A stretch of 23,296 nt of DNA from Candidatus Micrarchaeia archaeon (GTDB lineage: Archaea; Micrarchaeota; Micrarchaeia; Burarchaeales; JACRGF01): positions 1 through 23,296 of the forward strand of contig JAWCPB010000019.1 in assembly GCA_038870455.1 (NCBI GenBank), in the 5' to 3' direction. The translations under genes were made by a program, and so were the position numbers. Numbering within the stretch: position 1 is the first letter of the stretch; each line of letters opens with the position of its first letter. Shown here in pieces: positions 1 to 20,133 of the stretch. Under the pieces are notes generated by a model that was not told the DNA's origin, did no database searches, and saw nothing but the letters and a program-made list of their open reading frames with translations.

Positions 1-348
1 AAGCCAAACCCGAACGCTTCGCTGGCAGCCTATTACTTCTGGAGCAGGGCATGCCCGTACTCGCTGGACGCGAATCCTTTCATTGACGAGGTGGAGCGGA
101 ACTGGTCGGCGCTCAGCATAGTGCGCGTTGACATTCTCATGAACTGGCCTGCGTTCGAGCTCTACACGAGGTTTGCGGACGCGTACAACCTGTCCAACGA
201 CTCGCGGGTGGTGCCCGTGGTTTTCATAAACGGCACGACCATCTCGACGAACTACACGATAAAGGAAAAGCTCGCGGGGGTTGTGGCGGCGTGCCTGCGC
301 TCAAAAAACTGCTCCAGCCCGCTCGCCCCGCTGAACCTAACGGGCTGA
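1..348 (+). CDS. Thioredoxin/glutaredoxin-fold protein, 5'-partial
   Basis: Frame 1 is open from base 1 and reads KPNPNASLAAYYFWSRACPYSLDANPFIDEVERNW...VVPVVFINGT. It has a CxxS (CPYS) motif after a hydrophobic strand and a cis-Pro-type VPVVFING motif. Confidence 0.7.
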   Translation, partial: KPNPNASLAAYYFWSRACPYSLDANPFIDEVERNWSALSIVRVDILMNWPAFELYTRFADAYNLSNDSRVVPVVFINGTTISTNYTIKEKLAGVVAACLRSKNCSSPLAPLNLTG

Positions 349-1047
349 CTTTTCCTGTTCTCTCGCTATTTCGGCGAGCGCGCGCTTTCCAAGCAGCCCG
401 GTTGGAGAAAAGAACGCGAGCAGGAACGCGGCGAACTTGATGAGGGGGTCTTTTCTCTTGACGTGGCGCAACTCATGCAGGAGGATGAGCTCGAGCTTTT
501 TCCTTGGCAGGAGCTCGAGAGCGCCCACGGACAAGACTATGAAGCTCTTTTCACCCACGACCGAGAACGCGATGGGCTCCTGCCTGCTTACGAAGCGAAG
601 CTCAGGCGCAACCACGCCGACTCTCATGCTCAAGCGCTCGTTCAGAGCGTGAAGCCAGTGGGAAGCCGGAAGCGCTTGGCCTCCGATGGCCGCCACGAAA
701 AGCCGCGAGCCGAGGAGATAGAACACGGTGGCGGAGAGCACCACGGCCAGCGGAAGCGCGCCGAAAAGCACTTTCATCGAAAGCATGTCGCAGTTCATGG
801 CCACGAGCCAAGTCGTCAGCGGAAGTGTTGCGAGCACGAGGCTCGCCATTATGGCGGCCATCCGCGCCCTGAACGAGGAGAAAATCACCCTTGCCCTGTA
901 GGCTGCGTAGGAGGCGGCAAAAAAGCCTGTGGTTATGGCGAGCGTGTCCGCCCGCGTTATGCACGCCCAGTGGTCTTTCAGGAGGTACGCCGCGAAAGCT
1001 GCCCCGCTCGCTGCGAGAAGCACTTCACTGGCATTAAACTTAGGCAT
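337..1047 (-). CDS. Membrane zinc metallopeptidase, M56 (BlaR1-like)/M48 type; C-terminus appears short
   Basis: Several N-terminal hydrophobic helices, PIAFSV..IVLSVGALELL, HExxH motif (LLHELRHVKRKD), then REQE just before the stop. Confidence 0.75.
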   Translation of the reverse strand: MPKFNASEVLLAASGAAFAAYLLKDHWACITRADTLAITTGFFAASYAAYRARVIFSSFRARMAAIMASLVLATLPLTTWLVAMNCDMLSMKVLFGALPLAVVLSATVFYLLGSRLFVAAIGGQALPASHWLHALNERLSMRVGVVAPELRFVSRQEPIAFSVVGEKSFIVLSVGALELLPRKKLELILLHELRHVKRKDPLIKFAAFLLAFFSPTGLLGKRALAEIAREQEKSAR

Positions 1048-1120
1048 ATCAAAACAAGGTATATTTCACGGCGCTTGTTTTTAAGCTTACTACTTTGACC
1101 GCTGACGGAGGTATCGGCAA

Positions 1121-1221
1121 CAACCCTTTTGTCGGCGATCCGGCAAAAGCGTTGACGGAAAAAGGAGAGCGCCTGCGGCGCCAACCCTTTTGTCGGCGAT
1201 CCGGCAAAAGCGTTGACGGAA
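1121..1221 (+). repeat. Two identical 40-bp palindromic direct repeats (1121-1160, 1182-1221) separated by 21 bp
   Basis: CAACCCTTTTGTCGGCGATCCGGCAAAAGCGTTGACGGAA occurs twice. Internal hairpin CAAC.CTTTTG.CGG-cgat-CCG.CAAAAG.GTTG. The spacer contains a small hairpin, GCGCC-tgc-GGCGC. Confidence 0.95.
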
Positions 1222-1340
1222 GACAAAGGGGGGAAGTATCCCCCCTTCGTCCTAGACCTTCCCCCCTCTCGAGGAGGGTCAGGAGGAACCTGGAACTGGG
1301 GGAACCGCAGGTTCCCGCGGTTCAGTCCCCCTGGGTTCGG
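1222..1340 (+). mobile_element. ~120-bp non-coding multi-hairpin dispersed element, copy A
   Basis: GACAAAGGGGGG...GGGTTCGG aligns end to end with the reverse complement of 14653-14773 (about 85-90% identity by eye, same boundaries). No terminal inverted repeats. Confidence 0.75.
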
Positions 1341-5010: not shown

Positions 5011-5610
5011 ATGCTGGAGGCCCTCATAACATCAAGGGTGAAGAGGAAACTGCTTGCGTTTTTTTTCGCCAATCCGGAAAACGAATTCTACATAAGGGAA
5101 GTGTCAAAGAGACTTGGCGAGGAAACGAACGCGGTCAGAAGCGGGCTTCAGGCGCTGGCGGACGCTGGGATACTCTACTCAAACAGGAAGGGGAACCTGA
5201 GATATTTCGGGGTGAACAAAAAATGCCCTATTTTCGAAGAGCTGAAAACCATGCTGCTGAAGACAGAGGGGCTCGGTGATGCGATGAGGAAAGAGTTGGA
5301 GAAGTCGGGTGCCCTGTTCGCTTTCGTATACGGCTCTTACGCGGAGGGAAAGGAAAGAAAAGGCAGCGACATAGACCTCATGGTGATTGGCGATATTCAC
5401 ATAGATGACTTCAACAAAATTATTTCCCGCATTGAAAGAAAAATAGGGCGCGATGTCAATTACCTCGTTTACCCAGAAAAAGAGTTCGCGGAGAAGCTCT
5501 CGAGCGGCTTCTTGCGCGATGTCGTCAGAAGCAGGAGGATAATGCTCGTCGGGGAGGAGGATGCATTTAAGCGATTTGTTGAAGCAAGGGCGGATACGGA
5601 AAGTTCCTAA
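5011..5610 (+). CDS. wHTH-fused minimal nucleotidyltransferase (MNT), putative antitoxin
   Basis: N-terminal wHTH (FYIREVSKRLGEETNAVRSGLQAL) and Pol-beta-type motif YGSYAEG...SDIDLMVIG; adjacent to a HEPN gene. Confidence 0.85.
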   Translation: MLEALITSRVKRKLLAFFFANPENEFYIREVSKRLGEETNAVRSGLQALADAGILYSNRKGNLRYFGVNKKCPIFEELKTMLLKTEGLGDAMRKELEKSGALFAFVYGSYAEGKERKGSDIDLMVIGDIHIDDFNKIISRIERKIGRDVNYLVYPEKEFAEKLSSGFLRDVVRSRRIMLVGEEDAFKRFVEARADTESS

Positions 5611-5983
5611 AGATCCGAGACAGGCCGGCGAGAACCTCGCGGCGGCTGAGAGGGACCTGGCGGTAGCCGGGAAAACCCTTGAAGTGGATTGTGACTGGGC
5701 TTTCGTCATGGCTTATAACGCGATGCTGCACGCGGCGATGGCGCTCATGTTCGCAGAGGGATACGCCCCATCAGGAGAAGAAAGGCACAAGATCGCGGTG
5801 GATTACGCCGATGCCAAGCTCGGAGCGAGATTCGGGGACCTGGTCAGTCTTTTTGACAGGATGAGGAAAAAGAGGCACGCGGTGCTTTACGAGAAAGTCG
5901 GTTCGATTTCAAGGTACGAAGCGGGTTTTGCGCTCAAAACCGCCAAAGAATTTGTTGAGAGAATAAAGGAAAAAACTGAGTGA
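5561..5983 (+). CDS. HEPN-domain protein, partner of the upstream MNT
   Basis: AERDL..A, AYNAMLHAAMALM..G, H, and RKKRH..Y pattern of archaeal HEPN proteins; overlaps the MNT gene by 50 bp. Confidence 0.8.
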   Translation: MHLSDLLKQGRIRKVPKDPRQAGENLAAAERDLAVAGKTLEVDCDWAFVMAYNAMLHAAMALMFAEGYAPSGEERHKIAVDYADAKLGARFGDLVSLFDRMRKKRHAVLYEKVGSISRYEAGFALKTAKEFVERIKEKTE

Positions 5984-7241: not shown

Positions 7242-10200
7242 CTAAAATCTGGCATTAAGGAAAAAGAAAAATTTCCACAGTTCGAACTCTTCGATAGGTC
7301 TCAGAGTTAGGACTTTATCATAATCAGCTCGAAGTCCAAGATCAAGTTGCCAATTTCCGTATTTTTCTCCTCTGATTGTAAGGACTGGCCCTCCGCCTCC
7401 GCCGAACATGCTCCATCTTGTTGCTCCACTTTGATAGATTGTCTCGCCTCCTCCAATGCCCGCAGAGAGCTCAAGCGTCAAATCCCATTTTTTTTTCTTT
7501 ACCCAAAAGATGCTTGCCTCAAGTTTGCCAATGTGCTGCTTCAGATATGAATAGTCAGCCTGACCGAGATTAAGCTGTTCCAGAAAATCTTTTATATCTT
7601 CATACCCCTCCTCTTTATTAAGCACCGCAATAAGGTTCTGATACTCGCTCTCGCTCATCACAGAAACGATGCCTTTTTTCCGCACATCATCGAATATGTA
7701 GAGCACACGCACTTCCCCATAAGTGTCCAACTTGAACGCTATCTCCGCGTTCAGATTTGTCAGTTCTTTATCAGAGAGACGGATGTATTGGCCAGAGAAG
7801 GCTGCTATGGTCTCGATCGATGGAGAAAAGTTCAAGTATGCGGCCACTCCTCCAGCAACGCCAACAGGGTAATACACAGAACCCCATATCCCAAGCTCCT
7901 GCAAGAGTGCGCCTTTTTCGAAATGCCGCACGACCTTTGCTCCAAAGGTATAGGCCTCTTCTCCGACCAAGCCTCCGCCTCCAATCAGCCACTTTGTCCA
8001 GTCCTTGGCGAGCAGGCCTCCTCCGAGCCACGGGGTTTCCTGCCCGACGATTTCCGCAACGAATTTCCCCTCGTCGTCCTTGTATCGGATGATGCCTATT
8101 GTGCCAGCTCCCGAAAAGCCTACCCTGTCCACCGCACCCTCTATTCTTTTTTCACCGAGCTCATCAAGCACAAACCTGAATGCAACGTTAAAATCCACGC
8201 CTGTCTCTTCGGCCAACCTCCGTGCTAGAATGGAGGCTGTCACATAATGATTGAATTTCTCTCTGTCCATGATCCATGTAACTCTCCCGCCCGTTATCTC
8301 ACCCCGGATTTCCTCAACCGCTGCTGACCTGGCCTTCGCCCACTTTTCAATCTCGGCTTTCACGGCAGGATCGTCTGGATTGAAGCCCAGCGCCCGCGCG
8401 TAATCGCTCCCTATCTTTACAAGCTGCTCATAAGTTGGAGCCGGGGCTGCGAACAATCCCTTGTTCTCCGAAAAGGATTTGTCGATAGCGCTGGCCACAG
8501 CGCTTTGTGGGATTTCTTTCTCTCCGAGCTGTTGCTTTAACCTGTTAAATCTCCACAAGAGGTCGTTAAAGCCGAAGACGTTGACGTAGTGTTTTTTTAG
8601 CTGAAACTTTAGCACGCCATACACGTCGCGTCCCTCGGCCGCCCCTAACGTAAGCTCAAGCGGCAGTGGTTTGGAAAACAGCGTGGCAAGCTCCACGCCT
8701 TTTTTCCCGTCAATCTCGCGGTATGCACCTACGATGTGTGAGACAACCTTCTTGTTGCGCAGCTGGGCGCCAGCTGCCAGAATCACATCTTCCGGCCTTT
8801 CGAAAACGCCAACCGCCTTCTCCCTGCTGATTATGGCTCCAAGCATGGCCGGACCAACCGTTCCGGCGAGAACAACCCCCCCAAAAGACTTATCCGGAAG
8901 GTCGAACACCTTTCCTTCTTCTCCATACATTTTGTATCTCAAGCTCAACCCGAAAAGATCATCCACTGTTCCCCAGTAGCTCCCGAAAAGCTGATTTATC
9001 TTCTCTCCATTCGCGTTGTAAATGTCCATGCTCTTTATATGGATGAGGTGGCCGTGGGTGTTGAGAAAGGCGTATGCATTATACAGGCCGGTTCCGTAGT
9101 CTTTCTCTATGTAAAACACGATGTTGTTTTCTTCCGGAATTTGGCCCTCGATGTAGCTCTGGAGAATCTCCCCCTCGTTCCAACGAAACATCTGATACGG
9201 CACGGCCAGCTTTCCATCCTTTGCAATGCCAATGCCACGCAACTCCTCGAAAAATTTTACCAGCGCGTTTTTGCCATAATCTTCATATTGTCCTTCGATT
9301 AGGGCGCTCGACTCGGGACCAACCCCGACAACTCTTCCTCCGACATTCCACCAGCTGGATTCATATGAGCGGGCTACAAACTCTTTTCCATAGCCAGCCA
9401 CAATGGTCTCCACCCGCTGCTGCCTTTCCTTGGGCGACTGTGTGGATTCGGACATTAGCTTGTCGACTAACGCCTTTCGTTTGTCAGCATCCGGCTCGAA
9501 GGAAGCAAGAAGCTCATCAAACTTGTCGCGTCTCTGCTGGGCATCCTCGATATCGTAGGCGCTCAGGATGTCGTTCACAAGTCTGCTCTGGCCAGCATCC
9601 TGAAGTCCATAGGCGGTCGTAATGCTTTTTTGTATCTCAGCCTTCATTGTCGTCTCCCAGCCAACGAAACGTGTCTTGTACGCTCTCTGCGGCTTCCAGC
9701 TTGTCAGCGCGTTAATATAGTCACTTATGCCCCTCCAGCCAATCGGCTCTTTCGCCGCGCCTGGGATGCCATCGCGAGCAAAAGTTGGGAGCCCAAACAC
9801 GTTTTTTAGCTCTTCAAAATGTAATGGCTGTATATCGCTTATGAAAGCCCGCCTTCCAATAGGGGGGCCTGGAAAGTATGGATAAATTCTTCCTAGTTCA
9901 TAGCCGCCAGTGGTGTAAGTGTCACTGCCCCAGCTAGCTTTGTAAAAAGAGTAATAGCCAAGTGGCCAGCCCAGCGACCAGTAGATCTGTTTATAGACAC
10001 TGCCGTAATAATATAGATACGGCTCTCTGACCATCATATCTTCCTCTCTGCCGCTCTCAAGGTACCTGCCGAAGTACCCCGCCATGGGATTCACGTCAGC
10101 GCAGCCGAGGAGGTATTCGATTTTTTCTTTGTAATAGGTCTCGATGATCTTTTTGGCATCCAAGGCGTTTTTTCCCATGTTCTGTAGGTTGTTGTCATAC

Positions 10201-11609
10201 AATACGATGGTTGTTATGAGCTGCTCCAGCTCTCCATTAGCGGTTGTCCGTCTTATCAACGCCGGCAGCGCATTCGTGAAGAACGGCACCAGCCCTCCAT
10301 AGGCAATTTGGGGCAACTGGCCGTACAGCATGTTAAGGAATTCATTGTTGTCCAGGTTATTTTGTCTCAGCACCGGCAGCGCTTTACTCAAGAAGGCCCA
10401 CTGGGCGCGGATGTCAAGCTTCAAGATTGGGGCAAAAGGCAGTCTTCTGTCACTGAATTCCTTCACAAAGTTGGCCCTTGTTTTTAAGAAGGTTTCGTTC
10501 TTGGAAAGATTAATTAAAACTTCGAGTGAATCTTTCCCTCCAATTTCATCGTCGATTGTTGTGGAGTAATAGGAGAGGAAGACATCCTTCACAGCAGGCG
10601 GGAGTCCATCCACCGCCTTGCGCGCGTTTTCTGCTGCTTTATCTAGACGCGAACGAATGTCAGATTTTTCTGCGGTGTAGACAAAATCTCCTGACAGATT
10701 AGCCAGGTAGTTGAGAAGGTTGAGCATGCTGGTCTTCGCATAGTCAAGCTGGTGTCCGGTTTGCACACACCACTTACGCAAGTTGTGTGGGTCGAACCCC
10801 GGGACATCCTTGAGTCCGATTTTGTTAAGCACTTTACGCACACCATCGATGTAACCACTTTTCCATTCAGCGTTTCGTATAACATATCCTGCCTCTGCTG
10901 AACCAAGACGATCTTCAAGTTCCTTGCGCCTCTCGAGATCAAGCGGATCGGCAAGCCAAGTGGCGATCATCAAACCCAACCTTTCTCCTACCGAATAGCC
11001 ATCCTTATAGTCTTCTGTTATACCCTTCGAAAGGACCTGTTGCTCAAGCTCTCCAAAAATGTTGGTGCTTCTAATGGCTTCTGTATAACCCTTGTACTTG
11101 CTCTCCGGAGATTTCATGCGGGCGTAAATCTTCACCAGATGGTCATATGCCTCAATCCACTTTTCAGCTTCAACAAGTTCCTTTAGTTTTCTCACGTCCT
11201 CTTCTGCGAGTGTGTTAACGGTCTTCTTGGGCACGACAGGCTTTTTCTCGGGCTTTTCCGGCTTCTTCTCCATGTAAGCTTGTACCGCCTGTACGAACTC
11301 CTCGCCGTAGAGTGTTTTGGCATTTGTTGGATTATTGCGCGCAGACTCGATAGCACTGACTAAATCCTTAGGGGTAATCACTCCTCCCAACAAATTCCTG
11401 AGTCGAAGAAAACCTTTATCCTTATTAAGCGCGTTCCAATAGCCGCGCTTGAAATCTTCATTGTTTCCGTATTCCTTTGCGAGTCTCAGAAAATCCTCTT
11501 TTGCTTTTTCGTTCCCGGTTCTGGCAAACTTGGAAATAGCTTCAAAAGCATTCTCGCCAGCTTTTTCTTCCTTTGTGATCGGCTTTGGAACCTGTCCCAT
11601 GGTGCACAC
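7242..11609 (-). CDS. Large hypothetical protein (1455 aa): helical N-terminal part, beta-strand-rich C-terminal part ending in Phe
   Basis: Uninterrupted 4.4-kb ORF with lower GC than the core genes. No family recognised. The start may be 11600. Confidence 0.85.
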   Translation of the reverse strand: MCTMGQVPKPITKEEKAGENAFEAISKFARTGNEKAKEDFLRLAKEYGNNEDFKRGYWNALNKDKGFLRLRNLLGGVITPKDLVSAIESARNNPTNAKTLYGEEFVQAVQAYMEKKPEKPEKKPVVPKKTVNTLAEEDVRKLKELVEAEKWIEAYDHLVKIYARMKSPESKYKGYTEAIRSTNIFGELEQQVLSKGITEDYKDGYSVGERLGLMIATWLADPLDLERRKELEDRLGSAEAGYVIRNAEWKSGYIDGVRKVLNKIGLKDVPGFDPHNLRKWCVQTGHQLDYAKTSMLNLLNYLANLSGDFVYTAEKSDIRSRLDKAAENARKAVDGLPPAVKDVFLSYYSTTIDDEIGGKDSLEVLINLSKNETFLKTRANFVKEFSDRRLPFAPILKLDIRAQWAFLSKALPVLRQNNLDNNEFLNMLYGQLPQIAYGGLVPFFTNALPALIRRTTANGELEQLITTIVLYDNNLQNMGKNALDAKKIIETYYKEKIEYLLGCADVNPMAGYFGRYLESGREEDMMVREPYLYYYGSVYKQIYWSLGWPLGYYSFYKASWGSDTYTTGGYELGRIYPYFPGPPIGRRAFISDIQPLHFEELKNVFGLPTFARDGIPGAAKEPIGWRGISDYINALTSWKPQRAYKTRFVGWETTMKAEIQKSITTAYGLQDAGQSRLVNDILSAYDIEDAQQRRDKFDELLASFEPDADKRKALVDKLMSESTQSPKERQQRVETIVAGYGKEFVARSYESSWWNVGGRVVGVGPESSALIEGQYEDYGKNALVKFFEELRGIGIAKDGKLAVPYQMFRWNEGEILQSYIEGQIPEENNIVFYIEKDYGTGLYNAYAFLNTHGHLIHIKSMDIYNANGEKINQLFGSYWGTVDDLFGLSLRYKMYGEEGKVFDLPDKSFGGVVLAGTVGPAMLGAIISREKAVGVFERPEDVILAAGAQLRNKKVVSHIVGAYREIDGKKGVELATLFSKPLPLELTLGAAEGRDVYGVLKFQLKKHYVNVFGFNDLLWRFNRLKQQLGEKEIPQSAVASAIDKSFSENKGLFAAPAPTYEQLVKIGSDYARALGFNPDDPAVKAEIEKWAKARSAAVEEIRGEITGGRVTWIMDREKFNHYVTASILARRLAEETGVDFNVAFRFVLDELGEKRIEGAVDRVGFSGAGTIGIIRYKDDEGKFVAEIVGQETPWLGGGLLAKDWTKWLIGGGGLVGEEAYTFGAKVVRHFEKGALLQELGIWGSVYYPVGVAGGVAAYLNFSPSIETIAAFSGQYIRLSDKELTNLNAEIAFKLDTYGEVRVLYIFDDVRKKGIVSVMSESEYQNLIAVLNKEEGYEDIKDFLEQLNLGQADYSYLKQHIGKLEASIFWVKKKKWDLTLELSAGIGGGETIYQSGATRWSMFGGGGGPVLTIRGEKYGNWQLDLGLRADYDKVLTLRPIEEFELWKFFFFLNARF

Positions 11610-11625
11610 ATTTGATACTTAGGAT

Positions 11626-12753
11626 TTAAGGGAATGTTCTTCCTTCTTTTTTTCCTTTTCCAGGGGCTTTTGGTTGTGGTTGATATGTTTGGGGTTGATA
11701 TGGAGGCTGGTACGTCTTAGGGCGCTTTTCCGTGCAGGAGCGAATGACAATACCTCCAACGATAATCAACCCCAAAGTTGCAAATGGATGTTTTTTCACT
11801 CCGCGCGCTACTGCTGTGAGGTATTCTGCAAATTTTGGAAGAACCCGGGCTTCGATTACTTCAAACCCGTATTTTCTGAAAGCCTCGAGCCAAAGCCCTT
11901 TTCCTTTCATCAGGCCGATAACATCGTTTTTGATGGAGGTTATGTGGGATTCTTCAATCCCGTGCCTTTTCAGGACTGACTCCACTATGTCGGGGATGCT
12001 TTTTGAGGCATTTTTCTTATCGAGTGTTTCAATTATGATGTCCTGCATCAACAAATCTTTTTGTTCGGCGGAAAGAGCGAGGCTCCTAACAGAGCTCGAG
12101 ATATTGCGGGTGACTTCTACGATGTTGGCGTGCACAAACTTTCTGAACTGCCTCGCATTGATTATACCGTCTCTGCTGAGCTGAACGAGAAAATCATCAA
12201 TGCCGATGCCGTTGTGCAACGCGATTTTTTCGAGCAGTGGGTTTGTGGGGTCGTATTTCGCCAGCACTCTAATGAGCCTTTCAATTTCTTTTTCGCTCAG
12301 AGGCACTCCTTTTTCCAGTTTTCTTTTCAAAAGCCACCTGAATGGCGCCTTCCACCACTTCGCTTCTTTAAGAGCAGGACTTTCTACAATAATTTCGTAG
12401 AAGTCTTTTGGAAAAGTTGCCTGAAACATGCGGACCATTTCAATGCTCTTCGCTGTGCCAGTTGTGATTTCTACGGCTTTCTCGGGCGGGACGGCTATTG
12501 TTCTCTCAAGTTTATTCAAATCGTACTTGAGAACAGCAATTTCGCCTTTGGGGGTTTCCCCCTTTTGTATTTCCGCCATTATACCCTCGAGTCGTTTTCG
12601 TAAATTGTTTATTTTGGCTTTTGCATCATTCGGAAGATCTTTTTGTAACAATTGGAAGATTCTATTTTCTATCTCTTCGATTATCTTTATGAGTTCTTCG
12701 GGTCCTCCTTTGAACGCAGCCACTTTCTTTTGTATGTCGCTTACAACCCCCAC
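11626..12753 (-). CDS. Hypothetical protein with coiled-coil N-terminus, one near-C-terminal TM helix and YQP repeats
   Basis: GTG start preceded by AGGTGA and a TTTAAATA box (12785-12792, -). TM segment FATLGLIIVGGIVI, then TYQPPYQPQTYQPQP. Confidence 0.8.
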   Translation of the reverse strand: MGVVSDIQKKVAAFKGGPEELIKIIEEIENRIFQLLQKDLPNDAKAKINNLRKRLEGIMAEIQKGETPKGEIAVLKYDLNKLERTIAVPPEKAVEITTGTAKSIEMVRMFQATFPKDFYEIIVESPALKEAKWWKAPFRWLLKRKLEKGVPLSEKEIERLIRVLAKYDPTNPLLEKIALHNGIGIDDFLVQLSRDGIINARQFRKFVHANIVEVTRNISSSVRSLALSAEQKDLLMQDIIIETLDKKNASKSIPDIVESVLKRHGIEESHITSIKNDVIGLMKGKGLWLEAFRKYGFEVIEARVLPKFAEYLTAVARGVKKHPFATLGLIIVGGIVIRSCTEKRPKTYQPPYQPQTYQPQPKAPGKGKKEGRTFP

Positions 12754-12793
12754 TTCATCACCTGTGTATTGTGCGCATCTTCGCTATTTAAAT

Positions 12794-14122
12794 CTATATC
12801 TCCAGCTTATGTTCCTCTGCGTATTCGATGGCAAGTCGTGCAAGCTCATTTCCCTCTATTTTCTTAATTCTTCTCCTCACTTCTTCCGGAATGGCATGGC
12901 CGCGGTAGTACTCGAGTATGCATTTTGCAAGAAACGGCGCGATTTCCTCCTTTTCTTTTAGTTTCAGAATTTTCCTTATTTCATCAAACGCGCCTTCCCT
13001 GTCCAATTCCCCTTCCGAGTAGTGCTTTTCGAAAACTTCTGGGAAGAGGGAGCTGACCAGCAGAATCCCCAGATCGAGTTGTATATCGGTCTGGGATGCG
13101 ATGAATTTTTCAAACGTCTTCTCCTCTTCCCGCCATGTTTCATACACTTCCTTTAGAGCCCATGCGATGTCTAAAGTGACATAAGGGGTGATAACCCACT
13201 TTATGAACCACCGCGGCGCATACTTGTAGATTGCGGTCCATCCCAGCGTCATGAGTATGGCATTGAACATGAAGTCTCTGATTTGCTCGTGGGCCGGCCG
13301 GAAGACCTCGCCGAGATAATCGGCGTTGTTGCGGTAGGCCAACTCCAGTTCGTCAAATGCTCTGGCAGCTTCCCCTCTTGCAGACACGATGCGCTCGAAG
13401 TTTTTTCTTATTGTTTTTTCATCCCCGGAAAGTATGGCCATGCCCGCCGCGGCAGTCGTATCGAGCAGCAGGCGAAGCCGGGATTCCGCCTCCTCCAGCG
13501 CCAAGGCGTATTCCGTGAAGGCGCGTTTCTGCGCCTGGCTGATCTCCCTTCCGCCCCAGAAGACATCTCGGATGGTCCGCCAGATGGCGATGTCCTTGCC
13601 CGTAAGCATTTCGTATGCGCCCGCGCCGGCAGCGTAGGGAAGCGCTCCCAAAATCGTCATGAGCATGGTGCCGCCCGTGAGAAAGAGGCGCGAGGCCGCG
13701 CCCGGCGCGCGCAATTCCGAGAGATTCGCGAGGGTTTTGTCATACTTCTCGTATGTGCGCACAAAGGCCTCCATTTGAATGAGTATGCCGGGGTTTTTCT
13801 TCAGGAAAGTTTTAGCTGCGTTGAGCTGCTCGGGCCTCATTGAGGAGAGAAAGGAGTAGACGCGCCACTCAACATCTTTCGGGAGGCTGATGAAAGTGCG
13901 AAGTGGCATTCCAGATGCCAGGCTTTTGAGAATGGCGAGAATTATTTCGGCCTCCACGCGCTTGGCATACTGTTGAAAGAATTTGTCAGCGGCAACCCGT
14001 TCGCGTGGACTCATCCTTGAGAAATCCACCGGCACATGATGGGTATTGTATACCTTCACCGCGTCCTCAGGAGAGAGCGAAAATCCCACCTTTGGGGTGG
14101 GCGCGAGTAGTTGTTGCGTCAT
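12794..14122 (-). CDS. Hypothetical helical protein with internal hydrophobic segments
   Basis: 442-aa ORF with hydrophobic stretches LFLTGGTMLMTILGALPYAAGAGA and FMFNAILMTLGWTAIY...WFIKWVITPYVTLDIAWAL. Confidence 0.8.
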   Translation of the reverse strand: MTQQLLAPTPKVGFSLSPEDAVKVYNTHHVPVDFSRMSPRERVAADKFFQQYAKRVEAEIILAILKSLASGMPLRTFISLPKDVEWRVYSFLSSMRPEQLNAAKTFLKKNPGILIQMEAFVRTYEKYDKTLANLSELRAPGAASRLFLTGGTMLMTILGALPYAAGAGAYEMLTGKDIAIWRTIRDVFWGGREISQAQKRAFTEYALALEEAESRLRLLLDTTAAAGMAILSGDEKTIRKNFERIVSARGEAARAFDELELAYRNNADYLGEVFRPAHEQIRDFMFNAILMTLGWTAIYKYAPRWFIKWVITPYVTLDIAWALKEVYETWREEEKTFEKFIASQTDIQLDLGILLVSSLFPEVFEKHYSEGELDREGAFDEIRKILKLKEKEEIAPFLAKCILEYYRGHAIPEEVRRRIKKIEGNELARLAIEYAEEHKLEI

Positions 14123-19945: not shown

Positions 19946-20133
19946 CGGGCCCGAAGGGATTCTCAGACCCTTTTTCCGTGAACGCTTTTTCGGTTTGCCG
20001 AAAAAGGGTTCTTTGAACCCTTGACCGTCAGCTTTCTTGGCCTCGGGGGAATCCCGGGGCGTAGAAGGCTGCTGCGCTATGTGCCCACCTTTTCCGGTTC
20101 GCGAAAAAGGGTTCCAGGCTGCGCCACGGGCCC
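19946..20133 (-). tRNA. trnR: tRNA-Arg(UCU) with three introns (sites 19/20, 37/38, 59/60)
   Basis: Exons 20133-20114, 20080-20062, 20033-20012 and 19959-19946 join to a 75-nt cloverleaf: GGGCCCG TG GCGC AGCCTGGATA GCGC A GCAGC CT-TCT-AA GCTGA CGGTC AAGGG TTCAAAT CCCTT CGGGCCC G. Introns of 33, 28 and 52 nt have BHB-like junctions. CCA is not encoded. Confidence 0.92.

Follow-up and report, generated by a model that had tools for sequence, protein, structure and literature searches.

Introns in archaeal tRNA genes are marked by the motif known as bulge-helix-bulge (BHB), in which two 3-nt bulges lie on opposite strands with a 4-bp helix between them, and cleavage follows the second bulge base. 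In archaeal tRNA-Trp, the BHB intron contains a C/D box small RNA (sRNA) that is released by the tRNA-intron endonuclease EndA, and in eukaryotes, introner elements are repeat families that create spliceosomal introns. Highly similar introns in distinct Thermoproteales tRNAs were reportedly found by Fujishima and colleagues in 2010, and were interpreted as the result of intron transposition. The sections of two reviews that deal with these transposed Thermoproteales introns state that a BHB is required at each new site (PMC4033280, PMC4090602), with the mechanism of transposition called unknown in one of them (PMC4090602), and the same sections make no mention of free-standing copies. A 2026 preprint on Asgard archaea leaves the route of intron arrival open, and in Caldiarchaeum, an integrating element of 1.8 kb, encoding a recombinase, disrupts a tRNA gene (PMC3293823). 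Here, we describe a 45-nt structured repeat, E, in a 23,296-nt contig of a Candidatus Micrarchaeia archaeon (GenBank assembly GCA_038870455.1, contig JAWCPB010000019.1, positions 1 to 23,296 of the forward strand; referred to as the window), where it occurs within a tRNA-Arg(TCT) gene and also in a free-standing array. E is probably a selfish structured repeat family that lives in BHB-spliced RNAs and creates introns.

Like the transposed introns of the Thermoproteales, E is present in 19 to 20 tRNA genes of different isotypes within one genome. Unlike them, it has a defined core with covarying positions and forms introns of several tandem units; it is not confined to tRNA introns, with 21 of 54 copies in non-tRNA arrays and others in a C/D-like sRNA and, in other phyla, in rRNA; and it is found in a PolD-bearing, DPANN-like genome and spans many phyla. 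Similar introns in unrelated tRNAs were already known; what appears to be new here is the defined core, the free and rRNA copies, the tandem units, the range of phyla, and a polarised gain, and a keyword and sequence-string search of the literature, with supplements and subscription papers outside its range, returned no description of any of these. E also resembles the eukaryotic introners, in that the repeat copies are themselves introns, appear in bursts in single lineages, and have splice signals that come partly from the element and partly from the site, but it differs in presumably relying on a protein endonuclease that acts at a predicted BHB, and not on the spliceosome, in being 45 nt long, in having non-coding RNAs as hosts, and in showing no link to a transposase. 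As with the tRNA-Trp C/D sRNA, E is a structured RNA within a predicted BHB intron, although it has no C or D boxes, lies in about 20 different tRNAs and positions, and varies in copy number between congeners.

The genome to which the window belongs (G000; the window is its contig C19) has 1.04 Mb in 51 contigs and is rated 90% complete. A profile hidden Markov model (HMM) built from 13 E copies has 54 matches in this genome at an expectation value of ≤1e-3, and none in either the reversed or the block-shuffled genome. The original prediction, made from the letters of the window, that tRNA introns and free palindromes belong to a single dispersed family is borne out by these matches, as is its expectation of a similarity beyond chance and of further copies. 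Using the intron finder described below and by reading the flanking sequences, we placed the copies as follows:

31 copies: inside 19 to 20 tRNA genes, always in the sense orientation
1 copy: in the central loop of a C/D-box-like sRNA (contig C6)
1 copy: degenerate (contig C8)
21 copies: in composite arrays outside any recognisable tRNA, including 1121-1225 of the window

The tRNA hosts are Gln-TTG, Gln-CTG-like, Ala-CGC, Ala-GGC, Cys-GCA, Ser-like, Pro-CGG, Pro-GGG, Thr-GGT, Thr-TGT, Thr-CGT (plus a duplicate contig end), Lys-CTT, Arg-TCT, Arg-CCG, Asp-GTC, Val-CAC, Phe-GAA, Leu-GAG, and Glu-TTC. Within these genes, the sites of E are the D loop, the T loop, and the position following the anticodon, and several of the introns contain tandem units, two or three in number. 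E fills roughly half of the tRNA introns of this one genome and accounts for about half of its tRNA genes, and it exists both inside and outside introns. The sRNA (C6:23080-23240, minus strand) has GUGAUGA .. CUGA-like boxes, with a full E in its central loop.

The finder lists candidate introns with the BHB geometry given above (4-bp central helix, 3-nt bulge on either strand, cleavage behind the second base of the bulge) and scores the spliced product as a cloverleaf, with a maximum of 31. This geometry is supported here because it gives correct 7-nt anticodon and T loops in ~30 tRNAs. After excision, the E-bearing tRNAs of G000 form cloverleaves scoring 29 to 31, compared with 28 at best, and none at 29, in 24 random 600-nt regions of the same genome. 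When E was excised and ARAGORN then run, only part of the genes were solved, and anticodons were mis-called. The only Phe and Asp tRNA genes found both have E introns, with no second gene reported by ARAGORN with introns allowed; it follows that E-bearing genes must work and that their inserts have to be removed. The Rfam tRNA model reaches its threshold at just 15 places in G000, and ARAGORN with introns allowed reports 24 tRNAs, several with wrong anticodons; routine annotation would miss many tRNAs in such lineages.

Within the window, the finder recovers a tRNA-Arg(TCT) gene with three introns:

19947..20133, minus strand: tRNA-Arg(TCT) gene, from the BHB-plus-cloverleaf search
20114-20133, 20062-20080, 20012-20033, and 19947-19959, minus strand: tRNA-Arg(TCT) exons, joined as a 74-nt cloverleaf
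20081..20113, minus strand: intron 1, 33 nt, in the D loop; a shortened E relative
20034..20061, minus strand: intron 2, 28 nt, at the canonical position 37/38; outside the E family
19960..20011, minus strand: intron 3, 52 nt, in the T loop at 59/60; a full E unit

The spliced product scores 30 of 31, with 7/7 acceptor, 4/4 D-stem, 4/5 anticodon-stem, and 5/5 T-stem pairs and the T loop TTCAAAT. The stretch from the start of intron 1 to the end of intron 3, derived independently, coincides exactly with the range 19960-20113 that had been predicted to hold the introns. Introns 1, 2, and 3 each fit the BHB geometry, with 4, 3, and 4 of the 4 central-helix pairs formed in the predicted structure. 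No tRNA is reported in the window by ARAGORN without introns or by Rfam at its gathering score; standard tools thus miss this gene, and the custom search is needed to recover it.

In intron 3, the HMM match (19971-20010) is followed by the tail CUGAGAA, whose UGAG is paired to UUCA of the T loop; the predicted BHB has a 4/4 central helix and 4 and 0 flanking pairs, and there is a terminal inverted repeat of 9 bp past one mismatch. In a global alignment, 19968-20011 of the minus strand is identical to the free-standing palindrome at 1121-1165 in 38 of 46 columns, close to the 38 of 45 counted originally. Intron 1, which had been taken for the same repeat, is formed by a ACCCUUUUU..AAAAGGU hairpin and the tail GGGC, paired to GCCU of the D loop (4/4 pairs in the central helix, 1 in the outer, and 3 in the inner). 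The E-family HMM does not match it in the genome search; aligned with the E intron that lies in the D loop of tRNA-Lys(CTT) (contig C15; 31/50 columns identical), it has the 5' end and the 3' tail in common and is missing ~16 nt of the core. Intron 1 is a shortened E relative rather than a full copy. Intron 2, in which the central helix has 3/4 pairs and the flanking helices 4 and 3, has zero E-family HMM matches.

We aligned 121 E copies, 3 from the window and 118 from other phyla (alignment A1). They describe a long hairpin in which a C.C mismatch is conserved and ACGGAAAA forms the single-stranded tail. In order, the unit has two variable bases ahead of ACCCUUUU, then a stem-loop of variable sequence, AAAAGCGU, a further two variable bases, and ACGGAAAA, which can be written as NN-ACCCUUUU-hairpin-AAAAGCGUN'N'-ACGGAAAA. 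ACCC, GCGU, and ACGGAAAA were fixed by the search pattern and their invariance in A1 is by construction, whereas the covarying positions were not fixed. In 119 of the 121 rows, the base two positions ahead of ACCC forms a pair with the second of the variable bases that follow GCGU (column pair 7:48: AU 36, UA 31, CG 27, GC 23, GU 2, other 2), and the neighbouring pair is AU in 102, GC in 15, and GU in 1. The covariation score of 7:48 is 0.300, as against 0.089 with shuffled partners (0 of 500 reach 0.300) and at most 0.119 with slid partners. A compensatory C:G to G:C swap closing the hairpin, spotted originally between 1121-1165 and intron 3 (GAAC..GTTC versus CAAC..GTTG), is real and is one case of this family-wide covariation.

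Many E copies end at the 3' side in AAAAGGGU, which is able to pair with the 5' ACCCUUUU as an alternative to the hairpin fold; these terminal inverted repeats are present in many intron copies, and absent or replaced in several array copies. At the T-loop site in the window and at the Leu-GAG site, pairing of AAAAGGGU with ACCCUUUU completes a regular BHB in the predicted fold. We rejected a different arrangement, with the conserved hairpin as a canonical BHB and the ACGG tail as its central helix: on reading the examined sites, ACGG is unpaired with exon bases. The E consensus has no C (RUGAUGA) or D (CUGA) boxes or other recognisable guide; Rfam gives no match to the E family at gathering score, and matches in 1060-1400 at E≤10 are weak, unrelated, and far below the gathering scores. 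In copies with pyrimidine-rich stems (L058, L084, L108, L109, L119, and others), the purine tail after ACGG mirrors the 3' strand of the stem. This mirror tail is the parallel complement of the 5' strand, with changes in the stem matched in the tail, and the subfamily has the layout of an intramolecular purine-motif triple helix. In 14 of 121 copies, the mirror run reaches 10 or more, whereas shuffled partners give 1.4 such copies on average and 6 at most.

We compared G000 with a congeneric genome (G001; 1.16 Mb, rated 95% complete), which was searched whole, with orthologous loci aligned through their flanking genes. There is a five-fold difference in E matches, with 54 in G000 and 10 in G001, and the individual sites compare as follows:

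tRNA-Arg(TCT): three introns in G000; all three in G001, with the core of intron 3 decayed
tRNA-Ala(GGC), tRNA-Val(CAC), and tRNA-Pro(CGG) T loop: E in both genomes
tRNA-Lys(CTT) D loop, tRNA-Phe(GAA) D loop, and the C/D-like sRNA: full E in G000; only the joined E termini in G001, as a 13-nt stub in the sRNA
tRNA-Lys(CTT) T loop, tRNA-Cys(GCA), and tRNA-Thr(GGT) anticodon: intron with E at its 5' end in G000; a short unrelated intron at the same site in G001
tRNA-Pro(GGG) D loop: E intron in G000; no intron in G001
tRNA-Leu(GAG) 37/38: 49-nt E intron in G000; intron-less in G001, with identical exons

The tRNA-Leu(GAG) gene gives the direction of change. It is uninterrupted in G001 and in four genomes of two other families (G013, G025, G014, and G020), with 98-100% identity over all 86 nt, whereas in G000 the match is split in two; the E intron is therefore a recent gain on the G000 lineage, and the suspicion that the repeat family is tied to tRNA intron gain proved correct at this gene. 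Between the filled and the empty site the difference is 49 nt, with an ambiguity of 2 nt (GG), and a likeness between TGAGG and TGGGG is equally well read as BHB pairing. By eye, the nearest relative of this intron is the D-loop intron of tRNA-Lys(CTT), including GG before and GGGUG after the unit. At the T loop of tRNA-Lys(CTT), and in tRNA-Cys(GCA) and tRNA-Thr(GGT), E appears to have been inserted into existing introns, and we counted these sites in favour of a mobile, intron-forming repeat. For tRNA-Arg(TCT), the idea of two recent entries was not sustained, since all three of its introns are also in G001; introns 1 and 3 are old E copies.

The copies outside tRNA genes are represented in the window by an array at 1079-1370, which has these components:

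1079..1120, plus strand: TATA-like box (TTTTTAAG, AT-rich) and leader, conserved at the orthologous locus of G001
1121..1165, plus strand: free E copy 1 (nhmmer match 1123-1163, E 4e-13)
1166..1181, plus strand: linker between the tandem E units, GC-rich hairpin GCGCC-UGC-GGCGC
1182..1225, plus strand: free E copy 2 (nhmmer match 1184-1225, E 9e-12); direct repeat D1, spacing 61
1221..1269, plus strand: Q module, a GGGGGG..CCCCCC hairpin (inverted repeats I1, I4)
1289..1323, plus strand: R module, the palindrome GGAAC..GGTTCC (inverted repeats I3, I6)

The array lies upstream of a protease-like gene (337-1047, minus strand), and further modules follow R. The two E copies are identical in 41 of 45 columns, with the 3' tail of copy 2 replaced by the start of the next repeat module; the linker between them also joins tandem E units within tRNA introns on C15, C33, and C39. 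Q and R are second and third palindromic repeat families, distinct from E; R recurs beside E in other arrays. Q has ~50 matches in G001, often in tandem with a period of ~44-48, and in G000 it is the 37/38 intron of tRNA-Thr(CGT) (C26) and of a Ser-like tRNA (C4); at least two unrelated repeat families, E and Q, thus appear to serve as introns in G000. At the ortholog of the array in G001 (C3, ~81045-81090), pairwise alignment shows the same upstream box and leader, followed by one E copy with an entirely different stem, rather than the two in G000. The conserved box and leader suggest that the array is transcribed, with the box as a putative promoter. We considered and rejected the possibility that 1095-1221 is a decayed duplicate of the tRNA, an alternative the original prediction had named as its own refutation: the best cloverleaf there scores 26, in the random range (maximum 28), and a scan of G000 with RF00005 at E≤10 has no match at the array.

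A further tRNA gene is found next to such arrays. The 5' half of tRNA-Arg(CCG) is on C11 (~9313-9470) and is followed by two E units and Q, and its 3' half is on C38 (1-176), preceded by E, R, and a further palindrome (P1); either the gene is split, or the assembly has broken a giant composite intron. The tRNA-Arg(CCG) halves recall the Caldiarchaeum case, where heterogeneity among populations or species ties a mobile element to intron gain and scattered tRNA fragments, although E, at 45 nt and non-coding, is unlike the element described there.

E is not restricted to this genus. A two-unit query matched 8 of 31 genomes of the same order and class (G000 included), and a scan of one genome per prokaryotic species with the core pattern matched at least 115 stretches, for which all but one of the titles among the matches listed are archaea. 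The lineages listed are Aenigmatarchaeota, Micrarchaeota/Micrarchaeia, Iainarchaeum, Nanoarchaeota, Woesearchaeota, Parvarchaeota, Nanohaloarchaea, Altiarchaeota, Methanophagales/ANME-1, Syntrophoarchaeum, Methanocellales, Methanosarcinales, and Thermoplasmata; one Micrarchaeia record (L016) has the tandem-plus-linker layout of the window, which, with the PolD genes of the window, puts the source organism among archaea of the DPANN type. Among the matches listed, 42 of 120 groups could be placed in tRNA introns in the sense orientation at a finder score of ≥29, as against 2 of 120 in antisense. The solved introns of other phyla hold 45 E units (counting each of the four tandem units of one intron, L085), with 25 at 37/38 of the anticodon loop, 8 in the T loop, 3 each in the D loop and the variable loop, and 6 elsewhere, and for 22 of the 45 the intron starts at the first base of the hairpin, two bases before ACCC. 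Rfam places E inside 16S rRNA at three loci (L010, L076, and L027) and inside 23S rRNA at two (L028 and L043), and other copies lie directly after tRNA 3' ends or, in ANME-1 contigs, after stop codons. The core pattern is also present in three viral contigs (L231-L233, IMG/VR). At two loci (L046:3930-3961 and L101), E lies within an IS200-type transposase frame, between the HVHLF motif and PPKYSVS, as an in-frame insert of 42 nt; this could be an mRNA BHB intron or a tolerated insertion of 14 residues.

We propose that E is a short structured repeat that multiplies in archaeal genomes, mostly inside RNA genes whose transcripts would be cut by the tRNA splicing endonuclease. In the pre-tRNA, either the pairing of the E termini or the hairpin itself would supply the intron-internal helix of a BHB, and a few bases following the unit would pair with the last bases of the exon; the whole insert, of one to three tandem units in G000, would then be excised, presumably by EndA, and the tRNA religated. 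G000 has two genes with a tRNA-intron endonuclease domain (C25:4197-4457, in a frame of 397 aa, and C2:67432-67674, 381 aa), close in length to the three-unit, broad-specificity EndA of the epsilon type in Micrarchaeum, which has 387 aa; 56% of the tRNA genes of that organism are disrupted (PMC3239211).

E has points in common with the repetitive extragenic palindromes (REP/BIME) mobilised by RAYT and with the hairpin miniature inverted-repeat transposable elements (MITEs) of the IS200/IS605 type, being a short, imperfect hairpin with conserved flanks, in high copy number and in clustered arrays. Unlike REP/RAYT systems, G000 has no Y1/HUH gene, the E arrays are direct tandems rather than alternating, and 31 of 54 copies are in genes in the sense of their host. 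The consensus does combine a hairpin with a conserved tetranucleotide beside it, the ACGG tail, but most copies sit inside genes. The 90%-complete G000 has 0 matches to the Y1/HUH transposase (PF01797), which is matched in control genomes, one match below cut-off to the TnpB zinc ribbon, and none to the RVT_1 reverse transcriptase. Together with there being no clear target-site duplication, these results do not establish the DNA transposon of REP/MITE type that was originally put forward. Rather than a transposase or reverse splicing, we favour copying at the DNA level, either between sites of short homology (GG before and GGGUG after the unit) or by ectopic conversion between tRNA genes. The GG/GGGUG flanks common to the Leu and Lys introns, the recurrence at conserved D- and T-loop sequences, and the tandem duplications would all fit such copying; the coincidence of the first hairpin base with the 5' splice site fits an RNA-level route, through reverse splicing of excised introns, as well. 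The direction could be either from a DNA repeat into tRNA or from an intron out of tRNA.

The reading of E as a selfish, intron-creating family draws on the family itself, its covarying structure and positions, its sense-only orientation, the copy-number difference between congeners, and one polarised gain. Several observations weigh on the other side. ACCC, GCGU, and ACGGAAAA, the bases set by the search pattern, are strictly kept across distant phyla, which would not usually be seen in a selfish repeat and hints at binding by a protein or at some other role; the array is at an orthologous place with its box conserved, as would be expected of a maintained gene no less than of a dump of repeats; the termini-only sites in G001 mean that part of the 54-versus-10 difference is decay in G001, not spread in G000; the finder requires a BHB-like boundary, and its BHB calls are not an independent test of splicing; and there is no candidate mobilising enzyme among Y1/HUH, TnpB, and RVT_1, integrases and DDE transposases not having been searched. 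A functional small RNA or protein-binding module, with the introns and arrays as its expression platforms, in the manner of the C/D box RNA of the tRNA-Trp intron, and with spread through selection for dosage, would explain why so many archaeal lineages have the core and tail, with the hairpin kept by compensatory change, why the TATA-like box and leader of the free array are conserved in the congener, and why copies are only in the sense orientation in host RNAs, with one in the internal loop of a C/D-box-like sRNA; the tail that mirrors the stem in the pyrimidine-rich subfamily likewise points to a structural constraint beyond that of a simple hairpin. We nonetheless consider this unlikely, given the swing between 54 and 10 copies in congeners, with several stubs in G001 lacking a visible replacement, the decayed core of tRNA-Arg(TCT) intron 3 in G001, and the missing Rfam family, C/D boxes, and recognisable guide.

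It is more doubtful still that the copies at 1121-1225 are part of a giant intron, or the leader or trailer of a split tRNA or other spliced RNA. The arrangement of the tRNA-Arg(CCG) halves beside E, R, P1, and Q could be taken that way, as could the use of Q itself as a 37/38 intron in two tRNAs and the several arrays that end at contig breaks, but there is no tRNA-like exon within 260 nt either side of the window array, neither the cloverleaf score nor the RF00005 scan singles the region out, and in both species the array lies between the protease-like gene and unrelated sequence. Strict BHB motifs are more numerous in the free array (49) than in shuffles (mean 27, maximum 38), a comparison that is uninformative in a region made of palindromes. 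'Free-standing' is the best reading of the window array. We give almost no credence to the idea that A/T-tract hairpins merely look alike by chance, or that the assembly is at fault: although the arms are low-complexity T4/A4 runs and many G000 copies are at contig ends, this explanation is refuted by the absence of matches in the control genomes, by the presence of E in the separately assembled congener and at 115 or more loci of named public assemblies, and by covariation far above the shuffled and slid controls. Contigs from three DNA runs show only extra depth over the repeat and joints from other copies, and are uninformative about this locus; the runs containing this DNA are labelled as hot-spring metagenomes.

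The selfish-repeat reading can be extended, more tentatively and with the balance somewhat against it, to E as an archaeal 'introner', the first to be defined: a pan-archaeal mobile element, non-coding and adapted to RNAs that are spliced at a BHB, which would create tRNA and rRNA introns, expand in tandem, and be seeded from transcribed free arrays, with the hairpin and tail as a handle for a factor of the host or encoded by an element, or else for a reverse reaction of the splicing endonuclease and ligase. E makes the origin of archaeal tRNA introns testable, as donor and recipient sites can be compared, the core is a handle for searches, and there are filled and empty sites for assays.

Elsewhere in the window, there is a nucleotidyltransferase/HEPN gene pair at 5011-5983, and PolD genes are present; the region 7242-14122 contains large open reading frames (1455, 375, and 442 aa) without a Pfam match.

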